DNA of 20,000 bases from an uncultured virus (IMG/VR IMGVR_UViG_3300030618_000013) (IMGVR_UViG_3300030618_000013); one strand, 5' to 3'; shown: positions 1,436-20,000, counted from the first letter of the stretch. Notes: generated by a model from the sequence alone, not told the origin. A program made the numbers and translations.

Positions 1436-1704
1436 CCAATCAAGAACTTGCAGCCTACGTGTTTGACACCGTGGCTGGCATAGCATTCGGTGTTTCCGCA
1501 GCCACACTGGATTCTACATTCAAGAGTTTGGGTTTGGATGCTCTCCATATTCTGGACCTAGCTCTTACCGTAGAGCGCGAACTTCAAGTCCCGATTGACG
1601 AAAAATTGTTTACTCCGGAATCAAGGGTCAAAGATTTAGTATCCGAGGTGAACAAGCAACTGGTAAACTTACGTATCAGAGATTTGAATCTAAATATTGT
1701 TTAA
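1432..1704 (+). CDS. acyl carrier protein-like protein lacking the phosphopantetheine-attachment Ser (GLDAL)
   Basis: AAGGA RBS at 1421-1425 favours ATG 1432; ACP pattern (DSTFKSLGLDALHILDLALTVERELQVPID...VKDLV), but codon 1540-1542 is GCT (Ala) at the DSL Ser position. Confidence 0.75.
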   Translation: MTNQELAAYVFDTVAGIAFGVSAATLDSTFKSLGLDALHILDLALTVERELQVPIDEKLFTPESRVKDLVSEVNKQLVNLRIRDLNLNIV

Positions 1705-3850: not shown

Positions 3851-4105
3851 TTGGAAGCTAAATACAACAAGTATAAGCCTAGGCTTGACCTAATTTCCTG
3901 GTTAGAACTCAGGAACCTGAGCTGGATCGAGTGCGGACCTGCGGAGAATAGTGGTTATGTTGACTACATGGGTTGCATCTACATTGATGTTCCTTTTGAT
4001 ATCGATAATTCAGATTACACCTTGTTAGCTGAGCGTCTAGAAAATAAAGATGGTACGCCGAAAAATCGCAACGTTCGTTTTCTATATTGTGCGTATAAAG
4101 ATTAA
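3851..4105 (+). CDS. hypothetical protein, possibly 5'-truncated
   Basis: Protein-like sequence (WL...W..CG...Y.G.IYIDVPFD...LENKDG), but a TTG start with no clear RBS and an in-frame TAG at 3824-3826. Confidence 0.55.
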   Translation: MEAKYNKYKPRLDLISWLELRNLSWIECGPAENSGYVDYMGCIYIDVPFDIDNSDYTLLAERLENKDGTPKNRNVRFLYCAYKD

Positions 4106-4140
4106 TCAGCGATTTTACTAAGTTGATTGGAGTCTCAACA

Positions 4141-4578
4141 ATGCCCAATAACATAATTAAACATGACGTAAAACAAGGCAAAGGTAGCAAGAAAAGTCTT
4201 GAACATAAATGGAAGGACGCTGAGGATAAGGCCAAGAAAAGCAGCGGCAAGAAAGAGCCCTATGCTTTGACTAATTATATTTATCACAAAATGACAGGTA
4301 GCACTAAAGTTGAAGCAGCCTTACGCCTAGTCGCGGTCTCCAAGATGGAAGCAGATGCTTTCGAGGGTTGGGTAAATACACTGCAGTATGCGTATGAACG
4401 TCCGGACAACGAGGACTTCGTGATCGTTGACGCGCCGTTAAAAGACGTTGAGGCCAAGCTTTATGCAAACGACTGGGCAAAGGCTAGGTCCGCCGAGGTC
4501 AATCATTTCAGTAAAGGTGAGCACGAAGTAGAATTAGAGGACATAGGAAATAAAACAAAAATTATCAGCGTTGCGTGA
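4141..4578 (+). CDS. hypothetical phage protein; basic N-terminal domain, internal AAxRL motif
   Basis: GGAG RBS at 4129-4132 favours ATG 4141; Lys-rich MP...E.KW..A...Y..I..KM domain, then VEAALRLVA, then a second domain. Confidence 0.8.
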   Translation: MPNNIIKHDVKQGKGSKKSLEHKWKDAEDKAKKSSGKKEPYALTNYIYHKMTGSTKVEAALRLVAVSKMEADAFEGWVNTLQYAYERPDNEDFVIVDAPLKDVEAKLYANDWAKARSAEVNHFSKGEHEVELEDIGNKTKIISVA

Positions 4579-4609
4579 GCTGAAAGTGAAAGTGCTTAAA
4601 AGGATTGAT

Positions 4610-6058
4610 ATGAAGGTTCAAATACACGCTGCACAACGACTGCTGGAGGATCAACACGAAAAACTAGCAACTCACAGAGGACATATCCTGGTCCTAGGCT
4701 TCGGTGGTGTTGGTCAATCGATTCTCCCCGTAATTCTACGTCACCTCGATGTAAGTCCTAGCGCGGTAGTCGTTCTGGATAAAGAGGTACGCCCTGAATT
4801 TGCTAAATACGAAGATTTGGGTGTAACTTACGTTCATCGTGAAATCGTCAAATCTAATTTGGTGCCAACACTAAATGAATTATTGAGTCCCGGTGACTTA
4901 CTGATTAACGTAAGCTTGAACATAGACGGACTAGAAATCGTTGAGTGGTGCCTACAAAATAATGTGCTCTACATTGACACGTCTATCGAACGTTGGGCTA
5001 CTGAACCCGACGAAATCATTCCGGAACTGGGTGAACGCACGCTCTACACAACGCATCAAGAAATGCGAAGAATGGCCTCGGCCTATCCTGGGGCCTCTAC
5101 CTGTGTGGTGACGCATGGAGCTAATCCAGGTCTAGTTTCGCATTTTGTTAAAGCGGCGTTGCTCAAACTCGCAAAAGATACAGGTCTGAAAACAGGGACC
5201 CCTGAGTCCCAAGAGCAATGGGGAATGCTAGCTGAAGCCCTGAATGTGAAAATAATTCAAACGGCTGAGCGCGATACACAAATTCTGAAAGAACCCAAGC
5301 GTGTTAATGAATTCGTCAACACCTGGAGCTGTGAAGGGTTCTGGGCTGAGGGTCGAGCACCAGCAGAAATGGGGTGGGGCACGCACGAAAAAGAGATTCC
5401 TGCTGACGGTAAAGAACTCGCTGGTGGCTCTGTGCTCTATCTAGAGCAACCGGGTGTGGAGACCACGGTTAAGTCGTGGGTACCTTTGGGCGGTACATTC
5501 AACGGCTATTTGATTCAGCACTCGGAAGCCATCACTATCAGCGAATACTTTAGTACAGAGAATTATCGACCGACCTGTTACTATGCGTATCAACCGTGTG
5601 ATGCTGCAATTGCGTCTGTCCATGAAATGAAGGGACAAGAATTGTGGATGCACAGAAAGACCCGAATTGCTAAAAATAGTATTCAGAGCGGAATCGATGA
5701 ACTAGGGGTCTTGCTTCTAGGTCATGAACGGAATGCCCTGTGGTACGGATCGCAACTTTCTATCGAAGAATCACGGGAACTGGTAGAAGGGCAAAACGCA
5801 ACAACATTGCAGGTAGTGGGTTCAATGTTAGGTGCTATTGTTTGGATGCTGGACAATCCTAATCAAGGTTATTGCGAACCAGAGGACCTACCATTTGAAT
5901 TCGTGTTAAACATCGCTTCGCCCTTCCTTGGGCCTATTGCTGCGGTCTACAGCGATTGGACGCCCCTAGCCCATGCAAATCGTGAACTGTATGACGACGA
6001 GCACGACGACTCAGATGTGTGGGCCTTTTCTAATTTTCGAACTGACAGTGGACTATAA
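4610..6058 (+). CDS. hss: homospermidine synthase
   Basis: AAGGA RBS before ATG 4610; Rossmann LGFGGVG; HGANPGLVSHFVK, NTWSCEGF.AEG..PAEMGWG, HSEA and NATTLQV signatures. Confidence 0.93.
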   Translation: MKVQIHAAQRLLEDQHEKLATHRGHILVLGFGGVGQSILPVILRHLDVSPSAVVVLDKEVRPEFAKYEDLGVTYVHREIVKSNLVPTLNELLSPGDLLINVSLNIDGLEIVEWCLQNNVLYIDTSIERWATEPDEIIPELGERTLYTTHQEMRRMASAYPGASTCVVTHGANPGLVSHFVKAALLKLAKDTGLKTGTPESQEQWGMLAEALNVKIIQTAERDTQILKEPKRVNEFVNTWSCEGFWAEGRAPAEMGWGTHEKEIPADGKELAGGSVLYLEQPGVETTVKSWVPLGGTFNGYLIQHSEAITISEYFSTENYRPTCYYAYQPCDAAIASVHEMKGQELWMHRKTRIAKNSIQSGIDELGVLLLGHERNALWYGSQLSIEESRELVEGQNATTLQVVGSMLGAIVWMLDNPNQGYCEPEDLPFEFVLNIASPFLGPIAAVYSDWTPLAHANRELYDDEHDDSDVWAFSNFRTDSGL

Positions 6059-6059
6059 A

Positions 6060-6635
6060 ATGATAAAAGCAGCGTCACGACTTATTGCTATAGAGGCGTC
6101 TAAGGATAAAGAGAATTGGGGACCCGGCATCAGAGGATATCACCAAGCAGTCGGAGCCTTAGTACTGGCCCTAGACACCGGTAACTTTAGTTTCCAGCTA
6201 CGTGGTCCTCATTCTGATACACCGAATTGCTACGGAACGTGGGGTGGCTCCGTTGACGGCGCAGAAGACTTGGTCAATGCCCTACGCCGGGAACTCAGAG
6301 AAGAGACCGGCTATAACGGTGAGTGGTCTGTAATGCCGCTCAAGGTATCCAGAAATGGAAAAGGCTTTGAGTACCACACTTATTTTGTTACTGTCCCCAA
6401 GCAGTTCGTAGTCAACCCAGAATCAGAATTCAGGTCAGAATCGACGGCTGCTATTTGGACAGCTTTCAATCAATGGCCTCAGCCAATGCATCCAGGACTT
6501 AAAGCGGTACTGGATGATCCACATGTGCAATTCGTGTTGGAGCAAGCCTTGAAACGTAGAGCACAGAATTTAAGCACGGGTGTCAAAGTCAATGCAGCAT
6601 CCAGATTGGTTAACTCCGAACTTTCGATCCGCTAG
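6060..6635 (+). CDS. Nudix hydrolase with AAxRL motifs at both termini
   Basis: Nudix box GGSVDGAEDLVNALRRELREETG; ATG 6060 lies 1 nt after the hss stop. Confidence 0.9.
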   Translation: MIKAASRLIAIEASKDKENWGPGIRGYHQAVGALVLALDTGNFSFQLRGPHSDTPNCYGTWGGSVDGAEDLVNALRRELREETGYNGEWSVMPLKVSRNGKGFEYHTYFVTVPKQFVVNPESEFRSESTAAIWTAFNQWPQPMHPGLKAVLDDPHVQFVLEQALKRRAQNLSTGVKVNAASRLVNSELSIR

Positions 6636-6668
6636 TAAATAGGGTTCATACAACAACTAAATACAATA

Positions 6669-7130
6669 ATGACTCAGCCTCTAGACGATGACAAAATGTA
6701 CATGGACTTTGCTAAACGTGCAGCCGAACGAAGTCATGCTCAACGACTTCAAGTAGGCTGCGTAATTGTGAAGGATGACTCTGTGGTGTCCTATGGTTGG
6801 AACGGCATGCCCCAGGGTTACGACAATACATGTGAACATTCGGTACTGTCAGGATCCGATGTAGGTAACAGCTATGTAATGCATTTCGGTTTGAAGACCA
6901 ACGATGAGGTCAGTCACGCTGAAATGAATGCTTGTGCAAAGTTAGCAGCATCTACGGTAAGCGCTGTTGGTGCCACGCTTTATTGTACGCACGCACCCTG
7001 TATTGAGTGCGCGAAACTAATTCAAAGAACAGGTATTGCCGAGGTTGTCTTTGCCGATTACTATAGAGACAACAAAGGTTTGGCGTTGCTCAACAAACGT
7101 GGTATTAGAACTAGCCTTTTGATGTACTAA
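6669..7130 (+). CDS. dCMP deaminase (ComEB/T4 cd family)
   Basis: VGCVIV, GWNG, HAEMNA and PCIEC zinc-binding motifs. Confidence 0.93.
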   Translation: MTQPLDDDKMYMDFAKRAAERSHAQRLQVGCVIVKDDSVVSYGWNGMPQGYDNTCEHSVLSGSDVGNSYVMHFGLKTNDEVSHAEMNACAKLAASTVSAVGATLYCTHAPCIECAKLIQRTGIAEVVFADYYRDNKGLALLNKRGIRTSLLMY

Positions 7131-7481
7131 ATGAAAAACATGAATTCCAATCCAAATCCCCAGGGCAATACCGATCATGTGTTCCACAAGAATCGTGTGT
7201 TCACAACCAATGACGCATGGCTAGCTATCAAAGAAAGTGTTGGGGTCTACGAGCTACCTAAAGGTTGGGAACGTATTTACGCTGGACGTAGCCTAACTAT
7301 TGTTAATCCCAAACGATCCTTCATTTTCAAGGTAACGGTCAACCAAGAGCTGTATGTTGACCGGAAAATAAATGGTGTGTTCCATAGCGAGCACCATCTA
7401 TGCAAGTCGAATAAAGAACTGACTGACCTAGCAGTCCAAATACTGGATATGGCTGTTCCGAAAGTTCAGAATTTGCAGTAA
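7131..7481 (+). CDS. hypothetical protein (116 aa)
   Basis: ORF directly abuts the deaminase stop. Confidence 0.7.
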   Translation: MKNMNSNPNPQGNTDHVFHKNRVFTTNDAWLAIKESVGVYELPKGWERIYAGRSLTIVNPKRSFIFKVTVNQELYVDRKINGVFHSEHHLCKSNKELTDLAVQILDMAVPKVQNLQ

Positions 7482-7484
7482 CCA

Positions 7485-7568
7485 TTTTGTGTCTAGGTTG
7501 ACACAAAAACCTGGACCCTTAGGTCGATTCTGAGCTAGGGACCAGTCTTTAACCTTGGCAGAGATGCC
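7485..7568 (+). other. structured intergenic region with three consecutive hairpins
   Basis: TTTTGTGTC/GACACAAAA perfect 9-bp inverted repeat; interrupted stem 7511-7545; GGCA-GAGA-TGCC GNRA hairpin. Confidence 0.55.
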
Positions 7569-7590
7569 TAATTACTAGGAATAGACAATA

Positions 7591-7851
7591 ATGCTTACAT
7601 TGAAACTTATGACAGGTGCGGCTATGGCTGACTCAGATGCCGCACACGATTTTATGTTGATTCAAATTAATGACGATGAGGAGCTTTCTTTCGAGAGACG
7701 TCCGCGTATAGGTGACGATAATAATTCAAGCCCTGTCTTTGCTGTTATCAAAAAGTATGGTGATGACACAGGTAAGGAATACTGGCTGCAAGGAAATGCC
7801 TACGTATTGAATGCGCAAGGTAAAACAATTGCCAGTCGTGCATCATACTAA
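7591..7851 (+). CDS. hypothetical protein (86 aa)
   Basis: AGGA RBS; C-terminal AYVLNAQGKTI pattern seen in small phage proteins. Confidence 0.75.
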   Translation: MLTLKLMTGAAMADSDAAHDFMLIQINDDEELSFERRPRIGDDNNSSPVFAVIKKYGDDTGKEYWLQGNAYVLNAQGKTIASRASY

Positions 7852-7880
7852 GCTCAGTTTTCAATTAAAGTTTTAGCATA

Positions 7881-7920
7881 AAAGGCGCAAATTCTTCATC
7901 GGGTTTGCGCCTTTATTATT
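7881..7920 (+). terminator. Rho-independent terminator, possibly bidirectional
   Basis: AAAGGCGCAAA (7881-7891) / TTTGCGCCTTT (7904-7914) stem with A-rich left and T-rich right flanks. Confidence 0.85.
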
Positions 7921-7929
7921 AAACCCTCA

Positions 7930-7942
7930 AATTTAATAGTAA
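7930..7942 (+). promoter_or_regulatory. candidate late-promoter element AATTTAATAGTAA (identical copy at 13188-13200)
   Basis: Identical 13-mer in two intergenic regions; the first lies just after a terminator, where a new promoter is needed. Confidence 0.45.
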
Positions 7943-7995
7943 CTGGGAGTGAGAGCCAAATCCCACACCAACTAAAGTTTGAGTGAGGTGATAAA

Positions 7996-9231
7996 TTGCC
8001 AATTCGTGAATCAAATAACAACAGGCTACTTCCGGCCAACGCTAGGGCTGCTGATGTTGCTGAACGTATGGTTGAACACATCATACCTATGCAACAGCGC
8101 AGATACTACGATGCTTTTCGTCCGCAGGGCATAACTTGTGTGCACTTCAACAGATTGACGTCCGGTCGTAAATGCAATTGCCAAGCTAGTGCTAAACAAT
8201 TAGGTGGAATCCTAGATGAACAGGGTAAGGCCAGCACCGGCACAATCAATAGTCTGATCACGGGCCAAACTCCGTTATCGTTCAATGTGACGCCCTATAA
8301 CTTCAATCAGCAAAGGGTAACAGGTTATAACGGAGAATCCAGTCCTAATGCTCCGCAGAACAAAAATCAGGGTGTGTTCGATGTTGTGACCCTGGGCGAG
8401 GATTTCCCCCTAGCTGATATCACAGACGAAGATTCATTTGGGGACAACGGTCCAGTTTCTCCCTTATCGCTTGACGACATGGTAGGCGACTTTGATGCCT
8501 CAACTATGGGCTTTTCCGATGTAGCGTGCCCCATCTGTTTTGGATCCGGCTTCATTGGCGGATTTGCACCCTACCACGCGCATCGTCAGGTGTTTACTGT
8601 GCCTGATGTCCAGCTCCCATTAACTGGTGAAATTAATCTGGAGGATAAACCGTGGACGGCCTCAACAGAGACCGGTTTCAATGTCTTAGTTACGCTGCCC
8701 AGAGGGGCTATTGGGGTTGACGTGTTCCGAGTCTGGGACTCAGCAATTCCGGTCCCCGCTAAATTCTCTATTGACGGAAATCCGCTGACTGGCATCACGA
8801 CCTTACTGTCTTATTGCGATGGAAAGCCACATCTAGTTACTGCTACGTTTAACGGACGGTTCACCCATCTAGAACTTCAATTCAACTTGACGACAGAGAG
8901 CGTGTATTTCGAGTTCCCAAAACGTCCGACTAGCTCTAATACTGCACTGCTGGAACAGATGGAACCGTTCCAAATTATACTGAGTCCTAACCTACCCAAT
9001 ATATCGAGCATGGACGTGATCGTTGAATCACAGCTAGGTAAAGTTCTAGTGGTCCAAAACGTCAATCCTTGGCGTTCCAGATTGCAGAATGTTTTGGGTT
9101 GGGAGGTTCAAGTCCGTGTAATTCAGCCTCAAGAATTATTTCGTATCTTGCCCCACAGAGGAAGAGTTGCGACCAAGGACCGAACTACGTCAATGACCAG
9201 AGATAACGTGACAGGCCCCCGTCGCACGTAA
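7996..9231 (+). CDS. probable virion structural (neck/head-completion-like) protein with split Zn-finger
   Basis: GAGGTG RBS and TTG start; CNC ... CPICFGSGFIGGF motif typical of large-phage virion proteins; first gene after a terminator. Confidence 0.6.
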   Translation: MPIRESNNNRLLPANARAADVAERMVEHIIPMQQRRYYDAFRPQGITCVHFNRLTSGRKCNCQASAKQLGGILDEQGKASTGTINSLITGQTPLSFNVTPYNFNQQRVTGYNGESSPNAPQNKNQGVFDVVTLGEDFPLADITDEDSFGDNGPVSPLSLDDMVGDFDASTMGFSDVACPICFGSGFIGGFAPYHAHRQVFTVPDVQLPLTGEINLEDKPWTASTETGFNVLVTLPRGAIGVDVFRVWDSAIPVPAKFSIDGNPLTGITTLLSYCDGKPHLVTATFNGRFTHLELQFNLTTESVYFEFPKRPTSSNTALLEQMEPFQIILSPNLPNISSMDVIVESQLGKVLVVQNVNPWRSRLQNVLGWEVQVRVIQPQELFRILPHRGRVATKDRTTSMTRDNVTGPRRT

Positions 9232-9278
9232 TTTAACATCAGACAAGCACAGCCCAGCACATTAGCTTAAGGATGATC

Positions 9279-10562
9279 ATGGCTACCAATGCAGCCCAGA
9301 GATTGAAAGCAAGCACGACTAAAGATAAAACAGGTAACGTTAAAACGTCAAAAAATAAACCAAGAACTCAAGTCAAGGCAGCTGCTCGTATTTGTGCCTT
9401 GGAGCTACCTAAGTTCCGATATATTGACGATGTTGCTCGATTTCTTGACCAGACGGGAAGCACGGTTAAAGAATTAAGTCAGCTAAGTGGAGTCCAGCAG
9501 CAACAACTAGCAAAATTAAATCAGGCACAAATCCACACTCATCCCTGCCTAGTTAAGGCCAGCGGCTTGAGTCTAGACGGCGAGACTCAAACTGATCCTG
9601 ATCATGAGTCCTTGAAGACCTTGGTTCCCAAAATTGAACAGCTGAATACGCAATATGTATTGTCAGAAGACTTGTACGAGAAATACAGGGCTTTAGAGGC
9701 CCTAGAAACGCAGTTGGCTATACAGTTCACGGATAAGCGGGGCGAGCCTTACACGAAGGCCTACGGACTGTTAAAAGCACTGAAGGACAAGATTGGCTTT
9801 CAGTTAAAAAACGTTTTAGAATTCTTGAGCAGCGTGGCCTCACACTACGTACCTAAAGTGTTTCAGAGCTACGTATCGACATTAGTCCAAGAGCTTCAAG
9901 AGCACGTTATATTCGAGCACAAGGAACAGTTTTTGTACGTCAGTGTCAAAGACGGAGCCCTAATCTTTACGGATTACATCTTGCTAAAGAACGTAAAGAA
10001 TGATGACCTACAGGTAACGCCCCATCTCTACATCAGCCTTCAATGGACTGTGAACCAAGGAATTCAAATTCAGGTTAATCATGAATTTGACTTACCCAAT
10101 CTGTTACTAGTTGATGGCGGTTCCGAGGTTAGTTCATTGAACGAAGCCTTAGTGGTGATAGACAAACTTTTGGAACAAGAGAACTTCAGTACTAGCCTAG
10201 CTGCTATTCCACTGTCTACCAGAATGAAGAATGATCCTTCCAAGTTCAGTGCTTCTATGTTTAACTACTGTGATTATATAAAGAAAGTTGACGTTGATGC
10301 TAAATGTATATCTTTTAGACTCAAAGCGAATACTACTGTCGAACAGATAGACGAAATTAAGTATCCGCTTTATCTTGAGGTCAAACGTTTGTTTGCCAAT
10401 AGTCCGGTCGTAAAACTTAGAGTGAAGATTGGTGCGAAATTCATATCGTTTGAACCTCTAACCTCGGGTATTAAATCGGCGGTCATTCCTCATGACGCTG
10501 AGGTTTTGGGTTCCAAATTTGGATTCACGGGCCTCCAGATAGCTAAACTATTGCAGTTCTAA
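9279..10562 (+). CDS. hypothetical (probable virion) protein with two N-terminal AAxRL-type motifs
   Basis: Long ORF; AAGGA at 9269-9273 favours ATG 9279; TNAAQRLKA and VKAAARICA. Confidence 0.8.
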   Translation: MATNAAQRLKASTTKDKTGNVKTSKNKPRTQVKAAARICALELPKFRYIDDVARFLDQTGSTVKELSQLSGVQQQQLAKLNQAQIHTHPCLVKASGLSLDGETQTDPDHESLKTLVPKIEQLNTQYVLSEDLYEKYRALEALETQLAIQFTDKRGEPYTKAYGLLKALKDKIGFQLKNVLEFLSSVASHYVPKVFQSYVSTLVQELQEHVIFEHKEQFLYVSVKDGALIFTDYILLKNVKNDDLQVTPHLYISLQWTVNQGIQIQVNHEFDLPNLLLVDGGSEVSSLNEALVVIDKLLEQENFSTSLAAIPLSTRMKNDPSKFSASMFNYCDYIKKVDVDAKCISFRLKANTTVEQIDEIKYPLYLEVKRLFANSPVVKLRVKIGAKFISFEPLTSGIKSAVIPHDAEVLGSKFGFTGLQIAKLLQF

Positions 10563-10582
10563 TTAATCTAATAAGGCGAGCT

Positions 10583-11353
10583 ATGGAAGGCTTAACTAAA
10601 GTTTATGCAGCATCAAGACTGCTGGCCCTCCGTACATTTGAAGGCCCTAATTACGATCATGATGCTGTTATCAAAGAATGGCTAAGGGTTCAGGCGAAAG
10701 GTGAATTACGGATAGTCGAAACAGATAGACCTAATATTTGGCTGACCGTAGCTAGCTTTAATTATAGTTTCTATATTTTTATCCATGACGATTTACTTGA
10801 TGCTTATCCTCAAGATTCTTTAGTGGGGTTGGTGACTTTTAATAGCATTGGTGCCACACAGTTCAATGGTAAAACCATGGAGTTGAAAAGTGCCCTGGGC
10901 AACAAGCTATACACGCCTCATGCTGAGATTAATCCCGATCATCAGAAGCAGAAAATAGTATCAAGTATCTATTCATGGTTTCTTGAAGCCGGTAATTGTC
11001 TGATGACCGGTGACTCACATTCTAGAGCCGCCAACCTGTTGTGGAGGAACCTAGCTTCAGTGTTCCCTACATATCTTATTGACCTGATGGGTCTCGAAAT
11101 ATTGTCACCAAAGACTAGAGAAAGAATAGCTAAGTCACATTTGATACGACTTTTGATGCTGGGAACCTCTTTTAGTTTTGAAGACTTAAAGGACCTCGGT
11201 TCTTCAGTTAGTGCCAAACTAGTTGACGAACCTGGGTTCGGTACCACGACAGAGGATTTAAATTCAGAGCCTGATTTGTTTGGGGACCACCCTACACGAA
11301 CAGGTATGGGCGTCAATAATATAATGCTCCCAAGTACACCCGTTCAAGGATAA
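10583..11353 (+). CDS. GNAT-like acetyltransferase-fold protein with N-terminal AAxRL motif
   Basis: INPDHQKQKIVSSIY..F....CLMTGDSHSRAANLLWRNL resembles a degenerate GNAT motif A plus the S..A..LW helix of phage GNAT-like proteins; ORF certain, fold tentative. Confidence 0.5.
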   Translation: MEGLTKVYAASRLLALRTFEGPNYDHDAVIKEWLRVQAKGELRIVETDRPNIWLTVASFNYSFYIFIHDDLLDAYPQDSLVGLVTFNSIGATQFNGKTMELKSALGNKLYTPHAEINPDHQKQKIVSSIYSWFLEAGNCLMTGDSHSRAANLLWRNLASVFPTYLIDLMGLEILSPKTRERIAKSHLIRLLMLGTSFSFEDLKDLGSSVSAKLVDEPGFGTTTEDLNSEPDLFGDHPTRTGMGVNNIMLPSTPVQG

Positions 11354-11356
11354 ATC

Positions 11357-12889
11357 ATGGCCGTACCTTATGTTTATTTTAAGACACCAACAACAGATAT
11401 AGCCGTTATTGCTGATGTAACCTCAATGTTGATTGGGGCTGAGACAATCACCAGCATCGTTGTAGGTACAGCCAGTCCCGTCACTAGCACTCCTTTGTCA
11501 GCAACAGTCACGACAGGCACTAGCTCGGTAATTGGATTAACGATTACGGGCGGCAATGACGGACTTAGTTATGGCTTTCAGTTAACAATTACTACTAATG
11601 CTCGTGTATTCATCGTCACTGTCGCCACATCAGTTTCACAAGCAGAATTTATTCCTTACACCACTGAAAATCCAGATGCGTTCCAAGACTTAGTAGACGA
11701 AATAGAAGCCGGTAAAGCAGCCGTCGGAACATCCGTATTTGCGTTTCCCCCGCAAATAGACCCTTCCGGTGGTTTTGTTACCTGGGAATTTCTAGCCTCA
11801 GACGGTACTGTTTATGCCGCAGGTAATGCTTTCGACTACACTGTGCAATCAAATGGGTTGGCCAATACTGTAGTTGCCAAATCTATTATTACGGTGCCCG
11901 TTACAGTCCCACCATCATTAGATGGACAAGCCTATCAATTAAGATATACGCTAAGTCTAAGTCAAGAGTATGGAACACCACCTGATCCCACAGCAGGGAA
12001 CCTAGGCCAGAACGTATTTTTTCAATTCGAGAACGTTCGGGTGGTGGGGTTGAACACAGTTCCATTGGGTACCCAACCATCAGTCGAGCTCCAGGGTGTA
12101 CCAGCTACTGTTTCAATTGTGTTGGACACGCTATATGATAATGTGACAGTCGAATTATGGGCTGGACCCACTCAAGTAGTGGCCCCGACCCAGATTCAAG
12201 CCTATGAAAGAACTGCTAATGGTTGGTACTTTGCTGGTGTATTAGATACCTCGGGATTAGGCGTATCCCTAGTTCCCTACCAAATAATTTGGAAATACTG
12301 GGCATCAACTAATACGGGAATCATCAATCAGGAAAATGCTGATTTCTTTGTTGTTAATCCGTCGATCATGAGTGCGGTCAATGACGTTAAAGCCAAGATT
12401 AATAAGGCACGGACTACGCTTTATGGAACACCTGATATGTTGTTCCCTGCTTCAACTATTTTAACCTGGCTACGCCGTGGTGGTGACGCATTCAATATCG
12501 CTTATGGACAGTTTACTAATTTCACGTTCACAAATGCACTGGGTGGTATTCGTGAATTTTGGTTACTATGCAGTGAAGCTGCCGCCTTAGCCAGTGCTTA
12601 TCTTTCGGAGGCTGAGAAATCCTTTAATTTTCAAGGTGCAGCAATTAGTTTAGACGTAGATAGAACTCAATATTTAGAGGCTGCTGCAACTGCTATTCAA
12701 ACCCGATTAGATAACGAATTGAAGCTGATCAAAACCAATCTTATTATCAAGGGAAATACTTCAGGTGATGGATCGGTCAACGCTGGTCAACTTCAACACG
12801 GAGCAATCGGTGCCGTAGGAATTACGATTACGCAGGCCTCAATGTGGGGAGCTTATGCTCCAGGATACTTTGGAAATCGTGGAATTTAA
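11357..12889 (+). CDS. probable virion structural protein (beta-rich N-terminus; helical head-tail adaptor-like C-terminus)
   Basis: 510 aa; T/V/G-rich Ig-like composition; C-terminal FNFQGAAISLDVDRTQYL pattern reminiscent of neck proteins. Confidence 0.55.
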   Translation: MAVPYVYFKTPTTDIAVIADVTSMLIGAETITSIVVGTASPVTSTPLSATVTTGTSSVIGLTITGGNDGLSYGFQLTITTNARVFIVTVATSVSQAEFIPYTTENPDAFQDLVDEIEAGKAAVGTSVFAFPPQIDPSGGFVTWEFLASDGTVYAAGNAFDYTVQSNGLANTVVAKSIITVPVTVPPSLDGQAYQLRYTLSLSQEYGTPPDPTAGNLGQNVFFQFENVRVVGLNTVPLGTQPSVELQGVPATVSIVLDTLYDNVTVELWAGPTQVVAPTQIQAYERTANGWYFAGVLDTSGLGVSLVPYQIIWKYWASTNTGIINQENADFFVVNPSIMSAVNDVKAKINKARTTLYGTPDMLFPASTILTWLRRGGDAFNIAYGQFTNFTFTNALGGIREFWLLCSEAAALASAYLSEAEKSFNFQGAAISLDVDRTQYLEAAATAIQTRLDNELKLIKTNLIIKGNTSGDGSVNAGQLQHGAIGAVGITITQASMWGAYAPGYFGNRGI

Positions 12890-12892
12890 ACT

Positions 12893-13189
12893 ATGAAAAC
12901 AAATGCACGTCAGCGAATACTGGCCTCAACTACTACGGTTTATGCCGGTGAGGACCTAGAAAAAGAAGGTGGGTTCAAACTTAAACTGGGCACCAATATT
13001 TTCAGATGCAGTTCACCTAAAGATGCTTATGAAAAGGCCGCACGTTTTATTCATAACTTAGAGATCGCAGGTTTTAGCTACGCAAAGAAGGCATCCGAAG
13101 TTGACGGCCTGGACACGTACACCAAAGCCAATCATGAAATCTCTATTGGGGTCCACGGTGGAAACCTGAACTTAAGTTACTGGCACTAA
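12893..13189 (+). CDS. hypothetical protein with N-terminal variant tag (TNARQRILA)
   Basis: 98 aa ORF, 3 nt after the previous stop. Confidence 0.75.
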   Translation: MKTNARQRILASTTTVYAGEDLEKEGGFKLKLGTNIFRCSSPKDAYEKAARFIHNLEIAGFSYAKKASEVDGLDTYTKANHEISIGVHGGNLNLSYWH

Positions 13190-13278
13190 TTTAATAGTAA
13201 TAGTCTCACAATCACAGTCACAAGCATTCAAAAAATAAACCCATAGTAGATGTAGGTCTAGGCTCACGGAGCTCACTC

Positions 13279-13713
13279 ATGTTTAATACCGTACTTTCGT
13301 TCATTGTTCAAAATCCCATGGCCTTTGTCCTGTTGGCAATAGTGGTCATTGCCCTAATACTTTTATGGGTAGTACAACGAACTAAAGATAATTTAGACCT
13401 ACGGTCATTAATCGTTGATGAGCAAACCAAGCAACCTTCTATTCATAAACTAGGGCAACTCACGGCTCTAGTCATGAGTACTTGGCTCTTGGTGTATTTA
13501 GCGCTACAAAATCGAATGGACAGTGTGTACTTCACTACGTACATGGGGATATGGACAGCCGCCCAGGCCATCAATCAATGGACGACTAGTCGAGGACGCA
13601 CGGACTTCAGCTACGGTAGCAACCAAATCCCGGCTAATTCTAATGTGGGTGGAGTGGGAATGGGTGGACCCCAGGATAATTCAGTTACACCAGCTGGAAA
13701 TCCACCGCAATAG
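13279..13713 (+). CDS. membrane protein, holin-like
   Basis: GGAG RBS; hydrophobic segments MAFVLLAIVVIALILLWVV and LTALVMSTWLLVYLAL, possibly a third; polar tail. Confidence 0.55.
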   Translation: MFNTVLSFIVQNPMAFVLLAIVVIALILLWVVQRTKDNLDLRSLIVDEQTKQPSIHKLGQLTALVMSTWLLVYLALQNRMDSVYFTTYMGIWTAAQAINQWTTSRGRTDFSYGSNQIPANSNVGGVGMGGPQDNSVTPAGNPPQ

Positions 13714-13749
13714 AATTTATGAGTCAGTTTTGAACTATAAGGATAATTA

Positions 13750-14097
13750 ATGTACGTGCATGCAGCTCAGAGACTGAAAGCTATAGAAGATGAAGAACAA
13801 AAAGTAGAGGCTCAAATTCACGAAGGTAAAGGTGATGAGCTTCGTAAAATACAGGCCGAGTTGCGCAAGCACGGCTTAATTTATAAATTCGTACACCCAC
13901 ATTTGATGTTCCACAAGAGCAATCCAGAGGATGTTGGACGTGAGGCCGAAGCCTCTGTTGAAGTTTTGAACCGTTTAAAGTACGCCATGAATGCAAGCCC
14001 TGGAATATTCAAAAGGGTTTCGTTCGCGGTTAAGGGTAACGACGGCGTATGCTTGCAGCGCGTGCAGGTAGCGTTAAGAATTTTCTTTTCCATTTGA
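13750..14097 (+). CDS. hypothetical protein with N-terminal AAxRL motif
   Basis: AAGGA RBS; MYVHAAQRLKA. Confidence 0.8.
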   Translation: MYVHAAQRLKAIEDEEQKVEAQIHEGKGDELRKIQAELRKHGLIYKFVHPHLMFHKSNPEDVGREAEASVEVLNRLKYAMNASPGIFKRVSFAVKGNDGVCLQRVQVALRIFFSI

Positions 14098-14105
14098 GGC
14101 TAACA

Positions 14106-14594
14106 ATGACTACTGTAAATTACACGAATGCTAAAGCGGCCTTGGTTGCTGCTGGACTACCAACCAGCGCTGGCTCCAATTGGGAAGGAATTGACCAAGC
14201 ATCCTACGATAAGTTCGCTGCAGCTGCTACCTACAAAGGTGGTGTTGCATACAGCAAGTATCAAACTAATTACGGGTTTGCTTATCCATCGATCATGCCT
14301 GTATCCGTGTTGGACGCTGTAGAGATCGATGACTATCATGCAACGTTGGCCGGTACTCCATTGACTGGTGCCCATGCATCTACACCTGTTACATGGACCC
14401 TGACCGAGACCGGAGCTACAGGTACTTCGTATTCTTGGCACCTGGGTGACGGTTCATCCCCGCAGGTTACCACAGTACCTCACCTGACTTATACCTATAG
14501 TGCGGCCGGTACGTTTACAGCTTCGGTGGTCCCGACTGTTGGCGGTAACCAGGTGCCCGCAATTTCCGCTACGGCTCCGGCTATTCTATCGTAA
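14106..14594 (+). CDS. PKD (Ig-like) domain protein, probable virion surface protein
   Basis: GAGG RBS at 14096-14099; SYSWHLGDGS...TYTYSAAGTFTASV matches the PKD signature WDFGDG...HTY...G.Y. Confidence 0.8.
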   Translation: MTTVNYTNAKAALVAAGLPTSAGSNWEGIDQASYDKFAAAATYKGGVAYSKYQTNYGFAYPSIMPVSVLDAVEIDDYHATLAGTPLTGAHASTPVTWTLTETGATGTSYSWHLGDGSSPQVTTVPHLTYTYSAAGTFTASVVPTVGGNQVPAISATAPAILS

Positions 14595-14607
14595 ATAGGA
14601 ATTAATT

Positions 14608-14934
14608 ATGCTGGCGCGCAGATCACGACCAAGAGCCCGAAATGTGCATGGCGTAGCCAGCATAAAAAGAGACAGTTATTCGACGGTCAATGGGTTCACC
14701 CAGAACAATTCTTGGTGGGAACTCAGAGCCAAGGCCTATGCTAGGGATAAAGGTGTGTGCCAGGCCTTAATTAGGGGCACCCGTTGTTTAAAGCCTGGAT
14801 CTGAGGTTCACCACATACAGCCGTTAAACGCTGGTGGCACCAATAATTTATCTAACTTAATTCTTTTGTGCCAGGCCTGTCACGACCGTAGGCACCCACA
14901 TTTAGTTAGAGCAGCACAATTAAAGAAAAGATGA
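14608..14934 (+). CDS. small HNH endonuclease
   Basis: RDKGVCQ...C...EVHHIQPLNAGGTNNLSNLILLCQACHDRRH. Confidence 0.9.
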   Translation: MLARRSRPRARNVHGVASIKRDSYSTVNGFTQNNSWWELRAKAYARDKGVCQALIRGTRCLKPGSEVHHIQPLNAGGTNNLSNLILLCQACHDRRHPHLVRAAQLKKR

Positions 14935-14962
14935 ACCAACATTAGCTTCTGAAAAGGTAATT

Positions 14963-15343
14963 ATGACCATGATCACAGCAGCCCTACGCCTATTGGCAGA
15001 CGCCGATGAGAAAGGCACCAACATAGAGGCAGGTCCCGAGGACGTGGAAAACGTGCTGACCATTCTAAAAAGAATTCTAGGCATTCATTTTCTGCTGGAT
15101 GATAGATCGTCTACCAACCAGTCTTTGATCTGGCGCACTTCCGAGTATCAAGCGGTCTTGAACTTCAGTACGGTTGATGAGGACTTAAACTTTTATTTCA
15201 AGGCCTCTAAATACAAGTACGAATTAAAGGCCGAAGGCTCGGATGATCAAAGCTTACTGGCTTCAATCGGAAAAGCAGCAACGGAAGTAAATAAAAAGGT
15301 ACCTGGACTAGACGAAGTCCTGTCCCAATTGCGTGCCCTATAG
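14963..15343 (+). CDS. hypothetical protein with N-terminal AAxRL motif
   Basis: AAGG RBS; MTMITAALRLLA. Confidence 0.8.
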   Translation: MTMITAALRLLADADEKGTNIEAGPEDVENVLTILKRILGIHFLLDDRSSTNQSLIWRTSEYQAVLNFSTVDEDLNFYFKASKYKYELKAEGSDDQSLLASIGKAATEVNKKVPGLDEVLSQLRAL

Positions 15344-15356
15344 AGAGAAACCTGTC

Positions 15357-15806
15357 ATGGATAATCAAAAACTTGTAAGCCTAATTGCTTTGTTTCTTCA
15401 GATCAATCCTGAACCGTCTGATGCTCAGTTCCACGCGCTGGCTGAGTCCGTTGGTGTTGATCATGAAAGTTTAGAATCAATTGCTTATGCCATGTTGGCC
15501 GACACCAACGAAATTGAACAAGAAGTAGTGGCTGAAATAGTTCAACCACCCCAGACAGAGAGCGAAGAAGTGCTGGACGGCGAGTACGATCCGAACACAA
15601 CTAGCGTTGAAGACTTGGTGTTAAATGACGGGGCACCAGCGGGAACTACTAGCCAGCAAGCATTGCAGGATTCAACATTAAATGACGGTGTTGGCATCAA
15701 CGATGTGGGGACCGGAATTGACGGTGACAAAGATGCAATGATTAGTGACGGCGTTGCACCCATGCAACTCAAAGCCGCTTTACGTCTGACTGAAAGTGCG
15801 GGTTAA
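15357..15806 (+). CDS. acidic hypothetical protein with internal repeats and C-terminal AAxRL motif
   Basis: ATG 15357 avoids overlap; NPEPSDAQFHALAE helical domain, three D-x-x-[LI]-[NS]-D-G repeats, ends LKAALRLTESAG. Confidence 0.8.
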   Translation: MDNQKLVSLIALFLQINPEPSDAQFHALAESVGVDHESLESIAYAMLADTNEIEQEVVAEIVQPPQTESEEVLDGEYDPNTTSVEDLVLNDGAPAGTTSQQALQDSTLNDGVGINDVGTGIDGDKDAMISDGVAPMQLKAALRLTESAG

Positions 15807-15808
15807 TC

Positions 15809-16540
15809 ATGAGTCGTGAACGTGAGGAACAGACGCAGCATCCATTTCTCAGTAACTTGGGAATTCCCGTTCTGCAGCAAGCACGGAAGCCAACGATTGA
15901 AGGATTTCCGTTGGCTTTTAATCAGAACAATCGATTGGCCTGGGCTCAGGCAGTTACTGAATCGGAGGTCACAAACAATTCGATTCTTGACTGGTCTGTA
16001 GCTATTCGCAGATACGTTGATCTGTGTATGGTTCATGATTTGTTTCCGTTCCAGAACGTTAGCCAGTCACGCAATGATCAGATTTCAACGTATTTGACTG
16101 AGCGTCGTCGGGCCTTCGTCAAGTTCGTGAATCTAACCGATTTGTTTGGTAACCTATTTATCAAGTCGACTACCAGAGAGGTCAAAGTAACTGACAAAGG
16201 ATTCGTGCTAACAGTTAATGCTGATGTCAACGTAAAGGATCCAACGTTTGTTGAATGGTTGAAGCGCACACCCTACCCTAAATTCCAGTTAGACACGCTT
16301 AACGGACATTACAGGCGTCAATTGATGGACGGACTTACACTATTTGCGTACAACGACTATTCCAGATCAATGGATCAACGTTGGCATCTAGGTTACGAAA
16401 TTGTGTGTCCTATTTTCCCTGATTTGCCTACCAATCAATTGCCGTCAAAGGCAGAAATTGAGAAATTCGTGTTGGATATTTTATGGCGTCCAGTCATGAT
16501 GTCAGCACGACCGTTGAAGACCCTACGCCGTCTTATTTAA
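15809..16540 (+). CDS. hypothetical protein (243 aa)
   Basis: Long ORF abutting the previous stop; no recognisable motif. Confidence 0.8.
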   Translation: MSREREEQTQHPFLSNLGIPVLQQARKPTIEGFPLAFNQNNRLAWAQAVTESEVTNNSILDWSVAIRRYVDLCMVHDLFPFQNVSQSRNDQISTYLTERRRAFVKFVNLTDLFGNLFIKSTTREVKVTDKGFVLTVNADVNVKDPTFVEWLKRTPYPKFQLDTLNGHYRRQLMDGLTLFAYNDYSRSMDQRWHLGYEIVCPIFPDLPTNQLPSKAEIEKFVLDILWRPVMMSARPLKTLRRLI

Positions 16541-17081: not shown

Positions 17082-19994
17082 ATGCTAAAAGACAAGCTAA
17101 GGCCCAAATCGAATTTGGTGGTACCTCAGCACCTGAAGCTCAACCGACGTCTTATGGGTGAGCGCTTCATGCATTTCTACACAGAAAAATACAGTGGGAG
17201 TCCGTCTTTCTTTCTGACTACTTTGTGGGCGTCAACCTTCTTTCCTTCGATTGTTGCAGACCCACGCCGTGGCTCCAGTCGATTGTTGGCCGAAAAATTA
17301 AGAAAAATAAATCCGAAGACCTATTTATCAATCAACAAAGTAGACGATGCACATATTCCTCATTACGAGGTGTCATTGCCGCTGGCATCTTTTAGCAAGG
17401 ACACGTGGGGTGCGCCATTAGCCTTCTTGAAAGACTGGTTTCTGGGTGAGAAAACGCATGGTCCAGAAGCCAACATGCAGCAGGTTCAAGAGTACAAAGA
17501 ATTTGCTGAACTTTTGGGTGACGAATCCCTTTCTTTTGTGTCCACAAGAAGTGTCCCGGCAGCTACTGTTATCGCTAACCTGAAAGACATCAAGGCCACA
17601 ACTAAACAGGCGTTGCTCAATTGCTTCTTAGAATTAAAAGTCCAAGTTAGAGGACATCTGTACATCATTTTTGCGGACTTCAAAATAGCTAAGGACGAGG
17701 CCGAACAACTAACGACCACCGAGTGGTCTCAGATTCGTGACATCGATATCTATCCATTGATTCTGCACTGGGTAGGTTCAGGCTTTGGCGAACGAGGACT
17801 GCCTAGCACTGCTTCGTTTCCGATTTCGAAAATCGTGTTTGGCTTGCCTCCAGATCACGTTGAATCCGCTCGTACAAATAAGTACAATATTTCTATTTCA
17901 CCTGTTGGCGAACCCGAATTTATTCCTCTAACAGTAGATCGAAATAACGCAATTGTTTATGAAGATCGCTATGCACAGGCCGGGACTCACAACGATTGTT
18001 TTGCTTTATCTACTCTAGCCTCAGCTAACCTAGAATTAGGCTCACAAACTGACGCTAGGACGCAACTCCCACATAACATGGTGGTGGCCCTTGACTGGGT
18101 GAACAACAAATTTTCGTACACCAACACTCAGGGAAACTTGCATGTTGAGGACCTAACACGTCATCGCAAGGCAGATATTTCGCACATCCGTGAACTGTTG
18201 GACAACCGGTTTATTACGTCAGAAAAAGTAGACTGGTTTGCTCGCATGGGCAAGAGCGCAGGCATTGATCCCAATTTCTTTCGTTCATGCATTCAAGATT
18301 CGGATTTTGAGGGCCTAGCCCTAGAGCCGCAGCTTCAACATACATTTGATAGTGCGGCCGGTCCACAAGACTGGTTTAAAGCATCTGTGGTACTTCATCA
18401 AAGATATGAAGATCGATCATCAATTAAGTTTTCCGAAATAAGCGAAACAGGTTTCGGGCCATTCAGATCATTGGCCCGGTATTTCGCTATCCTTGAAACA
18501 GCTATCAATGAAAACCTGGAGGCCGTGTACACGAAATGGAGTGTAGCCTCTGTTACTGAAATGCTGCCCTGGCTAACCCTGATTGCTAAATATGCATCAC
18601 GGATGGAATGGGTACGCACCAATGATGAGGCCAATCGGTATGCAGCAATTAATCAGGGTGTTGATCCTGATTGGGAAATTCCAGCTATTCCGTTGCTGGC
18701 TCCGAATATTGGGTTCTTGCCGCATCAAAAGAAAGTACGCAATTTACTGAAGGACAGTCCTGACCTAGCAATTCTACCCGTACAAGCAGGGGGTGGAAAA
18801 AGTTTACTTCTTATCACCGACATATTGTACGAAATTAAAGAAAATTCAAATGATCCTTACATTGTTTTGTGCCCAGGTCATTTGGTATCGAACTACGTAA
18901 AAGAAGTTGCGTACTTTACTAACGGACAACTGAACGTATTGGCTATCACCAATTCTGCCATACGCCAGTTGGGATTCGCACGTCTGCAGACCCTGTTTGA
19001 GCAGGCACCACGTAACACCGTGGTGTTTGTTGCCTATGACACCCTGAGCTACGTGCCCAAGGGTTTCAATCGAATAATTAATTACGGAACGACCCCGATC
19101 CAGGTATTTCCTGTCATTGATTTCTTGCGTCAATTCGACTTCGGTTATTCAGCCTTAGACGAGGCCCATCGCGTCAAGAATAATACGGCGCGTACACGTG
19201 CAGCCATGATGTTGATCACAGACATTCCAAAGAAACGACTGGCGTCCGGAACCATGGTTCACGATTCGCCATCGGATTTAGCCCTCCAAATTATGGCTCT
19301 GGACCCAACGCTTTTTGGATCACGTGAGAACTTCAATAATACTTATGGCTTGATCGTCAAAAGTGACCGTGTAGTTGAATGGAAGCCTGGTGCCCAGGTC
19401 CAGATCATGCTTAAAATCAGATCCCGGATTGTAGAGGCCAGGGCTATGCGCAAGGAGTGGGCTGCATTATTGCCGTCCAAGCGCGAATGGATTGGTGGTG
19501 TGACTCTGACACCTAATCAGCAGAGCGTATACAACGATTTGCTGGCTGGCGCACTAAAGAAAATGCAAGAGGACTCGATCAAGGGTTCAAGGAAAAAGGC
19601 GCTGGCCTTGCGTAAATTCTTTGCCCAAGACGTCGAGGGCGAGGCACCTGAGGACTTTGACTACGATAATCCAGTAGACGAAGACTCAGGTGAGTTGACA
19701 GAGACTGCGATCATGCCTTATCTAGCAACTCTAGAACAATTCATCATTGCGCCGGGAAAGATCGCACCTGATCAACTACAGGGTGAAGATGCAATTAGCC
19801 CTAAGGTTCTAGCTATTCTTGAACGTGTACGCTTGCATATTTTCGGTGGCTTAATTACGGACCCTGATACTGGCGAGAAAGTCCAATACGGACCTTTTCC
19901 CGGCAAGGTCCTGATCTTCACCAACAACATTATTTCTGCTGAAGAAATCTATGAACTGGCAGGCCCAGAATTAAAAGAGTGCGGAATACTATAA
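17082..19994 (+). CDS. SNF2-like SF2 helicase/ATPase with long N-terminal extension; ends before motifs V/VI
   Basis: FLPHQK (Q motif), AGGGKS (I), VLCP (Ia), DEAH at 19158-19169 (II), ASGT (III), SPK...KVLIFT (IV), then TAA at 19992-19994. Confidence 0.85.
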   Translation: MLKDKLRPKSNLVVPQHLKLNRRLMGERFMHFYTEKYSGSPSFFLTTLWASTFFPSIVADPRRGSSRLLAEKLRKINPKTYLSINKVDDAHIPHYEVSLPLASFSKDTWGAPLAFLKDWFLGEKTHGPEANMQQVQEYKEFAELLGDESLSFVSTRSVPAATVIANLKDIKATTKQALLNCFLELKVQVRGHLYIIFADFKIAKDEAEQLTTTEWSQIRDIDIYPLILHWVGSGFGERGLPSTASFPISKIVFGLPPDHVESARTNKYNISISPVGEPEFIPLTVDRNNAIVYEDRYAQAGTHNDCFALSTLASANLELGSQTDARTQLPHNMVVALDWVNNKFSYTNTQGNLHVEDLTRHRKADISHIRELLDNRFITSEKVDWFARMGKSAGIDPNFFRSCIQDSDFEGLALEPQLQHTFDSAAGPQDWFKASVVLHQRYEDRSSIKFSEISETGFGPFRSLARYFAILETAINENLEAVYTKWSVASVTEMLPWLTLIAKYASRMEWVRTNDEANRYAAINQGVDPDWEIPAIPLLAPNIGFLPHQKKVRNLLKDSPDLAILPVQAGGGKSLLLITDILYEIKENSNDPYIVLCPGHLVSNYVKEVAYFTNGQLNVLAITNSAIRQLGFARLQTLFEQAPRNTVVFVAYDTLSYVPKGFNRIINYGTTPIQVFPVIDFLRQFDFGYSALDEAHRVKNNTARTRAAMMLITDIPKKRLASGTMVHDSPSDLALQIMALDPTLFGSRENFNNTYGLIVKSDRVVEWKPGAQVQIMLKIRSRIVEARAMRKEWAALLPSKREWIGGVTLTPNQQSVYNDLLAGALKKMQEDSIKGSRKKALALRKFFAQDVEGEAPEDFDYDNPVDEDSGELTETAIMPYLATLEQFIIAPGKIAPDQLQGEDAISPKVLAILERVRLHIFGGLITDPDTGEKVQYGPFPGKVLIFTNNIISAEEIYELAGPELKECGIL

Positions 19995-20000
19995 AAGGCT

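Follow-up and report, generated by a model that had tools for sequence, protein, structure and literature searches.

A recurrent peptide at the ends of unrelated phage proteins

We analysed a 20,000-nt stretch of DNA (hereafter the window) from an uncultured virus (IMG/VR IMGVR_UViG_3300030618_000013), in which a compact peptide tag of about ten residues recurs on otherwise unrelated proteins. The window was taken from the reverse strand of a 70,688-bp contig, which matches part of a 230,110-bp IMG/VR record (G001, rated 97% complete) at 99.999% identity and wraps round the ends of that record; at window position 19994 a single base differs from the genome sequence (index 19993). The virus is a 230-kb jumbo phage of the phiRSL1 type. 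Its capsid protein is 82% identical to those of the Burkholderia phages BcepSauron and BcepSaruman, 77% to that of Ralstonia phage phiRSL1, 73% to that of Burkholderia phage BCSR5 and 61% to that of Achromobacter phage Motura, and its gene order is syntenic with phiRSL1 open reading frames (ORFs) 107-146. A megablast search with window positions 4000-16000 against the phage collection returned no match. All long ORFs of the window lie on the plus strand; genes were called by our own greedy choice of ORFs, with no gene finder. Downstream of the window follow genes for a head maturation protease (phrog_18299), an acidic, scaffold-like protein of 547 aa, a virion structural protein and the major head protein, together with sheath and tube genes; the protease, scaffold-like and capsid genes come after the helicase gene that runs off the window, at window-equivalent positions 22698-27572.

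A preliminary description of this DNA had named eleven copies of the peptide, one of them a variant, under the pattern [VITL]-x-A-A-[QSLA]-R-[LI]-x-[AEN]. Six-frame translation recovered all eleven on the plus strand, in coding frames and at the positions named (Table 1). The strict pattern itself matched ten times, always within a long plus-strand ORF, and had no match on the window's minus strand. Given ATG 4610 as the start of the homospermidine synthase gene (hss), 7 nt downstream of an AAGGA, and ATG 6060 as the start of the Nudix hydrolase gene, seven tags begin at residues 2-7, two are C-terminal (Nudix hydrolase; ORF 15333-15806) and two are internal (4309, 9372), which is the placement first described. 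The contig beyond the window holds four further copies. An extended alignment gave the consensus K-[VI]-x-A-A-x-R-L-h-A, with A-x-x-R-L as its core; the form common to the clade is h-x-A-A-x-R-L-x-A.

Table 1 Copies of the tag and untagged context genes in the window. Bit scores are from the matrix built on relatives only (see text).
Feature	Position	Strand	Setting
VEAALRLVA	4309..4335	+	Internal in ORF 4123-4578, preceded by a Lys-rich N-terminal part and followed by a C-terminal part of 84 residues
IHAAQRLLE	4622..4648	+	N-terminus of homospermidine synthase (Sacchrp_dh domains); likely start ATG 4610, ORF end 6058
IKAASRLIA	6063..6089	+	N-terminus of Nudix hydrolase, ATG 6060 to 6635
VNAASRLVN	6588..6614	+	Second copy on the Nudix hydrolase, 7 residues from the C-terminus (first Ala 13 residues from it)
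Conserved 411-aa protein, untagged	7996..9231	+	phrog_21298; in virion gene block; orthologues phiRSL1 ORF115, BcepSauron gp95, Motura gp156
TNAAQRLKA	9285..9311	+	N-terminus of 429-aa protein 9273-10562; 17.4 bits
VKAAARICA	9372..9398	+	Second copy in the 429-aa protein; conserved body LELPKFRY... starts right after the tag Ala
VYAASRLLA	10601..10627	+	N-terminus of 256-aa protein 10583-11353; 14.0 bits
'Head-tail connector protein', 510 aa, untagged	11357..12889	+	phrog_17327, E 1.6e-81; set among tagged genes
TNARQRILA (variant)	12899..12925	+	N-terminus of 98-aa protein 12893-13189; 10.0 bits, weakest copy
VHAAQRLKA	13756..13782	+	N-terminus of 115-aa protein 13750-14097; 13.6 bits; orthologues phiRSL1 ORF120 and BcepSauron gp91 tagged
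ITAALRLLA	14972..14998	+	N-terminus of 126-aa protein 14963-15343; 20.4 bits, top match of the genome; tagged orthologues in L017, L020 and phiRSL1 (ORF124)
LKAALRLTE	15768..15794	+	4 residues from the C-terminus of acidic 157-aa protein 15333-15806; 12.5 bits
SNF2-type 'DNA helicase', 1552 aa, untagged (start only)	17082..20000	+	phrog_62; continues beyond the end of the window

The number of copies was compared with that expected by chance in 2000 within-protein shuffles of the window (29 proteins, 5308 aa) and of the contig (97 proteins, 70.7 kb). The strict pattern was observed 10 times in the window against a shuffled mean of 0.004 (maximum 1), and 11 times in the contig against 0.011 (maximum 1). 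For the shorter AA.RL the corresponding figures were 9 against 0.119 (maximum 2) and 13 against 0.57 (maximum 5). The claim that codons vary synonymously also held: across the 15 contig copies, the arginine is written CGC (2), CGA (4), AGA (6) or CGT (3), the leucine as CTA, CTG, CTT, TTG or TTA, and the second alanine with all four of its codons. Equally, an all-against-all BLASTP comparison of the 12 contig carriers gave no pair at E < 1e-3, consistent with the earlier statement that they share nothing else; the best pairs stood at 0.002 and 0.003, and nearly all of the pairs listed were short matches across the tags themselves.

These counts bear on the explanation that the motif has no function as a peptide and reflects chance, common ancestry of its carriers or a DNA or RNA element near start codons. 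Most copies do lie near start codons, where RNA-level signals would be placed. Nevertheless, a DNA-level element was rejected on the synonymous codon variation, with arginine encoded by both CGN and AGA, and paralogy was rejected on the lack of any carrier pair at E < 1e-3. Ten copies where 0.004 are expected, the C-terminal and inter-domain copies, and the retention of the tag in genomes whose G+C content ranges from 0.44 to 0.58 already contradict this explanation, to which we give next to no credence. The tag is a label of protein ends that is portable and is conserved as a peptide.

The tag is absent from the two acyl carrier proteins, the PC4-like protein, the MazG-like protein and the dCMP deaminase, as had been noted. 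Residues 13-25 of the deaminase contain a look-alike that remains below threshold (10.8 bits); since the phiRSL1 deaminase (ORF113) is similar at the same place, we read it as part of the enzyme.

The tag in the whole genome and across the clade

To score the tag independently of this phage, a matrix was built solely from 29 tags of Motura, BcepSauron and phiRSL1 and scanned over all 349 ORFs of G001. Fifteen matches reached 12 bits or more, where a shuffled genome gave 0.7, and 11 reached 14 bits or more, where it gave 0.25; the tags of the window ranked at the top. Because a matrix made from the tags of three relatives recovers those of this phage, the tag is a feature of the whole clade. 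The scan added two more tagged proteins, one encoded among tail-fibre genes and the other among small genes without a PHROG match. In total, the 230-kb genome carries about 18 tags on about 14 proteins, of which 11 are N-terminal, 2 C-terminal and 5 internal, one of the internal ones being a second copy 30 residues into its protein. Two of the tagged proteins are enzymes, homospermidine synthase and the Nudix hydrolase.

In Motura, 15 of the 45 virion-block genes listed begin with M-x-I-Q-A-x-x-R-L-x-A; its tagged products are gp158-164, 168, 170, 171, 174-177 and 197. BcepSauron has four N-terminal and three C-terminal tags among 50 listed genes, and phiRSL1 has seven N-terminal tags and one internal tag among 46 (a second internal copy lies in ORF112). 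Several tags each were also found in the uncultured relatives L017, L020 and L021 from IMG/VR, and one in L023. The sets of carriers differ among Motura, BcepSauron, phiRSL1 and the phage studied here while the tag stays constant.

This distribution bears on the idea that the tag acts as a degron at protein ends or is bound by a host factor, such as an adaptor of an AAA+ protease or a chaperone, and that the level or timing of late proteins would be tuned through it. Degrons work at either terminus, and the tag is likewise short, portable and found at either end. However, phages that infect Ralstonia, Burkholderia or Achromobacter and those of uncultured hosts have an identical core, and the tag is nearly confined to the virion block; its conservation follows phage head genes and not hosts. 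We regard a degron or host-factor site as very unlikely.

Most of the tagged genes belong to the virion gene block. They share one strand, are interspersed with genes for the connector, sheath, tube and tail fibres, and lie upstream of those for the protease, the scaffold-like protein and the capsid protein. In Motura, 16 of 17 genome-wide matches to the N-terminal class of the matrix at 13 bits or more fall at 113-178 kb, which is the virion block. Alternatively, the label might direct its carriers elsewhere, to tail or baseplate assembly, to a phage assembly chaperone or to a cellular compartment late in infection; the preliminary description had itself allowed for another phage compartment. 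Some carriers have their genes among those for the tail fibres, just past the tube gene, or in the stretch that separates sheath from tube, and homospermidine synthase and the Nudix hydrolase make more obvious sense in the cytoplasm. Most carriers, however, are grouped near the genes for connector, protease, scaffold and capsid, and as small, diverse and fast-changing proteins they look more like internal or ejected head proteins than like tail parts. On gene position and the character of the carriers, a destination outside the head seems rather unlikely.

Orthologous proteins occur with and without the tag

Comparison of orthologues showed that the tag is modular, being carried by unrelated proteins and being present or absent in members of the same family. 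Homospermidine synthase is tagged in this phage and in L039, a 119-kb IMG/VR contig whose viral hss product is 62% identical; it is untagged in phiRSL1, in Motura and at the other 59 of 62 viral hss loci, a set that includes genes on very large records. The Nudix hydrolase is tagged in three lineages: in this phage it carries the tag at both ends, and phiRSL1 ORF109 and BcepSauron gp99 begin with it. For the 429-aa protein, Motura gp157 (as annotated) starts with MELPKFRY, exactly where the second tag of its orthologue ends. The acidic 157-aa protein has orthologues with a C-terminal tag in BcepSauron (gp90) and in the adjacent ORF of L017, with an internal tag in phiRSL1 (ORF125) and with none in Motura (gp180).

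In ORF 4123-4578 the tag stands between the two parts of the protein, and it does so at the same place in phiRSL1 ORF112; in BcepSauron gp98 the protein stops just past the tag. The 56 N-terminal residues of this ORF (window 4123-4290) are very rich in lysine, a property kept in both orthologues, and its product could be a small, basic, DNA-associated internal protein.

A predicted gp21-type head protease and a possible cut site

To our model of the head protease (predicted local distance difference test, pLDDT, 77) the T4 protease gp21 (5jbl_A) was matched with Z = 11.1 and a root-mean-square deviation of 3.1 Å over 145 aligned residues; herpesvirus proteases (human cytomegalovirus, Epstein-Barr virus and Kaposi's sarcoma-associated herpesvirus) were matched at Z 5.0-5.7. 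The modelled structure thus places the head protease in the T4 gp21 fold. Sequence searches of the PDB with the protease and the scaffold-like protein gave no match at E <= 1.

The core matrix used to examine the tag ends leaves the third residue after the arginine (+3) unscored. Of the 52 N-terminal tags, 35 have alanine at this position, where the background frequency is 8.3%. Sites of similar form recur in the head proteins. The N-terminus of the capsid protein is otherwise variable, yet 41 of 42 sequences retain A9 and as many retain A17; V or I stands two residues before A9 in 41 of the 42, and V two residues before A17 in 36. Among 35 aligned sequences of the scaffold-like protein, most of the closer ones have [VI]-x-A in the tail, just ahead of a conserved element at the C-terminus. 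The conserved h-x-A at the tag ends, the capsid N-terminus and the scaffold tail suggests that the head protease may cut after alanine. A cut after glutamate is not favoured by the residue patterns: glutamate occurs 2-5 residues past R-L in about half of this phage's tags and rarely in those of Motura, and only 32 of the 42 capsid sequences retain E19, fewer than the 41 that retain A9 and the 41 that retain A17.

The 547-aa protein (L003:4701-6341, minus strand; window-equivalent 23931-25574) falls in phrog_20988, which is labelled 'ATPase', although no ATPase motif and no fold match were seen in it. It has an acidic, low-complexity N-terminal half, a folded region at residues 270-460 and a disordered tail, in which P-x-[ST]-V-x-A-A-L-x-R-P, then [VI]-x-A and then GYSVxAxAILSGKxPLPF are conserved. 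From its acidity, its disordered tail and the place of its gene between those of the protease and the capsid protein, it looks like a scaffold. A model of residues 270-547 (35-row alignment, pLDDT 72) left the tail disordered and not docked on the folded part, giving no lead to a receptor, and a Foldseek search of the PDB with the scaffold-like domain found nothing at E <= 0.001. The first of the conserved tail motifs resembles the tag, and it was considered as a true copy and rejected. It scores under 6.8 bits in the relatives' matrix, because Gly or Pro stands where Leu follows Arg, and the likeness is a resemblance only. A complex prediction with the capsid protein (42 alignment rows), the protease (41) and the tagged 126-aa protein (3), run without controls, scored 0.00 in both runs and speaks neither for nor against binding.

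The motif might be no more than a place at which the head protease, or a different peptidase of the phage, recognises and cuts proteins; it would mark them for processing, with incorporation into the head, if any, set by other features. The 35 of 52 N-terminal tags that end in L-x-A, like the h-x-A sites of the capsid N-terminus and scaffold tail, agree with this, as do the one domain boundary that falls at a tag end and the presence in the genome of a papain-family peptidase (Peptidase_C1, E 3.4e-19) besides the gp21-fold protease. Yet the strongest conservation lies in the A-x-x-R-L core, upstream of the putative cut and not at it. C-terminal copies mostly lack the alanine (2 of 7 have it), and a cut there would free just 4-10 residues, to no clear purpose. 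A pure cut site also leaves the terminal position on unrelated carriers unexplained, and we hold it to be quite unlikely.

A candidate signal for loading proteins into the prohead

The preliminary description had read the motif as an address label that docks cargo on the prohead or scaffold. Its account of a portable tag, recognised at the peptide level and set at protein ends or between domains, stands. The capsid or prohead destination is one that we infer from the gene neighbourhood, the gp21-fold head protease and the analogy with the capsid targeting sequence (CTS) of phage T4. According to excerpts of two accounts of T4, its diverse internal proteins share only the CTS, which brings them into the scaffolding core, is removed by gp21 and is able to carry foreign proteins (PMC3012670, PMC5694885). 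As the pattern described above matches that description, we favour, with moderate confidence, a CTS-like signal by which proteins would be brought into the prohead, and which is probably removed from them afterwards.

Under this proposal, the tag, which from its residue pattern may form a short amphipathic helix, would dock its carrier, while the prohead is being built, on one of the head's components, with the scaffold core, the inner face of the shell and the protease as candidate partners. A mixed set of proteins, including the Nudix hydrolase and homospermidine synthase, would in this way be enclosed in the head and could be delivered with the DNA. N-terminal tags would probably be cut by the gp21-fold head protease at the L-x-A with which most of them end, and C-terminal and internal copies would dock and stay uncut.

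Several observations weigh against prohead loading followed by trimming. C-terminal and internal copies break the N-terminal rule of T4, and it is not evident what homospermidine synthase and the Nudix hydrolase, both enzymes of the cytoplasm, would do within a capsid. Tail genes, and not head genes, are the neighbours of several tagged genes (those separating sheath from tube, following the tube or set among tail-fibre genes); the tagged gene at G001 10946-11296 sits among small genes without a PHROG match, and one Motura match (15.0 bits, plus strand, about 211.9 kb) lies among replication genes. In the more distant Xanthomonas phage PhiXhv-12, whose capsid protein is 42% identical, inspection by eye revealed no tag within 20 kb of the capsid gene. 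The alanine at +3 is not universal, and the difference between N-terminal (35/52) and C-terminal (2/7) tags is a trend only (Fisher p = 0.09). Finally, T4 gp21 and proteases of the phiKZ type cut after glutamate, as stated in part of PMC5694885, and the tags have no fixed glutamate such as that of the T4 cut motif, (L/I)-x-E.

A bolder reading joins scaffold mimicry, an Ala-type cut and enzyme injection in a two-part module that docks and is then cut. The V-x-A-A-x-R-L core would mimic P-x-[ST]-V-x-A-A-L-x-R-P of the scaffold tail, so that cargo would borrow the prohead docking site of the scaffold, and the L-x-A end would be a site of the gp21-fold protease, its P1 residue shifted from Glu, as in T4 and phiKZ, to Ala, as in herpesvirus assemblins. 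If so, the clade would pack and inject working enzymes (homospermidine synthase, Nudix hydrolase) plus small effectors, and the tag would read out the injected arsenal of hundreds of uncultured jumbo phages from sequence. We consider this combination unlikely to hold in all its parts.

Relation to known targeting peptides and significance

The proposed loading signal may be compared with the T4 CTS (IPI-III, Alt). In both, a short peptide is common to unrelated, fast-changing proteins and keeps its form while the set of carriers varies between related phages. The tag, N-terminal in 11 of its 18 copies, has about the length of the 10-20-residue T4 propeptides, and this phage encodes a gp21-type protease and a separate scaffold, the latter assignment being the weaker. 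Unlike the T4 CTS, the tag is found at C-termini and between domains as well, and a single protein can bear two copies; a Glu cut site is lacking, L-x-A being the usual ending, and the putative cargo includes metabolic enzymes. To our knowledge, the sequence of the T4 CTS is unrelated to that of the tag.

Many inner head proteins of the jumbo phages phiKZ and SPN3US carry N-terminal propeptides that are removed by a gp21-related protease (PMC5694885, PMC10052503, in part), and a function in targeting, similar to the one of the T4 CTS, has been proposed for these propeptides (PMC5694885, in part). Those propeptides, as far as the same portions describe them, are mostly longer than 100 residues, are cut at (S/A/G)-x-E and lack one short consensus, whereas the tag of the phiRSL1 type is compact and has a single consensus.

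Two further systems offer partial parallels. The cargo-loading peptides of encapsulins sit at either end of their cargo and dock inside an HK97-fold shell, and like the tag they are short terminal peptides on enzymes. Encapsulins differ in having no protease, scaffold or DNA, and the peptide sequences differ as well; docking of the tag on the shell is conjecture. Herpesvirus assemblins cut maturation and release sites of the form (V/L)-x-A-S between Ala and Ser, and the cut frees the capsid-binding tail of the scaffold. The fold class of the protease is shared, and h-x-A followed by a small residue resembles the sites at the capsid N-terminus, scaffold tail and tag ends; the closest fold match of the phage protease, however, is T4 gp21 (Z 11.1), which cuts after Glu.

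Consistent with the preliminary description, in which the motif was not recognised from any described system, literature searches gave no description of it, the virion protein lists of the primary phiRSL1 papers lying outside their scope. Likewise, the tag is not described in the accessible portions of a 2026 jumbo-phage review and of a 2026 preprint on Matilda, a related Burkholderia phage. Compared with known head targeting of the CTS type, it has another consensus, is accepted at both ends of proteins, probably has a trim site of the Ala type and is borne by enzymes as well.

If the tag loads heads, the proteins likely to be delivered by the virions of a whole jumbo-phage clade could be listed from sequence. 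The clade is large in environmental data, with 568 homologues of the capsid protein, 323 of the protease and 156 of the scaffold-like protein. Delivered proteins would be prime candidates for early host takeover and counter-defence, like IPI of T4 as portrayed in part of PMC3012670. Enzyme cargo for polyamine synthesis and nucleotide hydrolysis, if real, would be an unusual addition to the proteins known to be injected by phages, and a ten-residue tag that works at either end could serve in practice to bring foreign proteins into capsids of very large size. Sites ending in Ala would also open the evolution of cut-site preference among gp21 and assemblin proteases to direct test.

Other genes of the window and late block

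Untagged auxiliary genes lie upstream of and among the tagged ones (window 1426-1704, 2535-2777, 840-1091, 2840-3736 and 6669-7130). Their products are two acyl carrier proteins (PP-binding), a PC4-like protein (a weak match, under the Pfam cut-off), a MazG-like pyrophosphohydrolase (phrog_671) and a dCMP deaminase. Also set among the tagged genes is one for a 181-aa protein with a PKD domain (window 14049-14594; E 1.9e-08), which may be a capsid or tail decoration protein.

An HNH endonuclease of 108 aa is encoded within the virion block (window 14608-14934), at the place where phiRSL1 (ORF122) and Motura (gp179) also have it; among its weaker PHROG matches, one bears the annotation small terminase subunit. 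Two further HNH or homing-endonuclease-like genes (L003:1516-2553, minus strand; L002:16110-16892, plus strand) break up the late block, the first directly behind the capsid gene and the second in opposite orientation, with the sheath gene on one side of it and a tagged gene on the other. As phiRSL1 has nothing at either place, both are probably mobile insertions. At the end of the late block lies the gene for the papain-family cysteine peptidase (L002:9876-10634, minus strand), the second peptidase of the phage besides the head protease.

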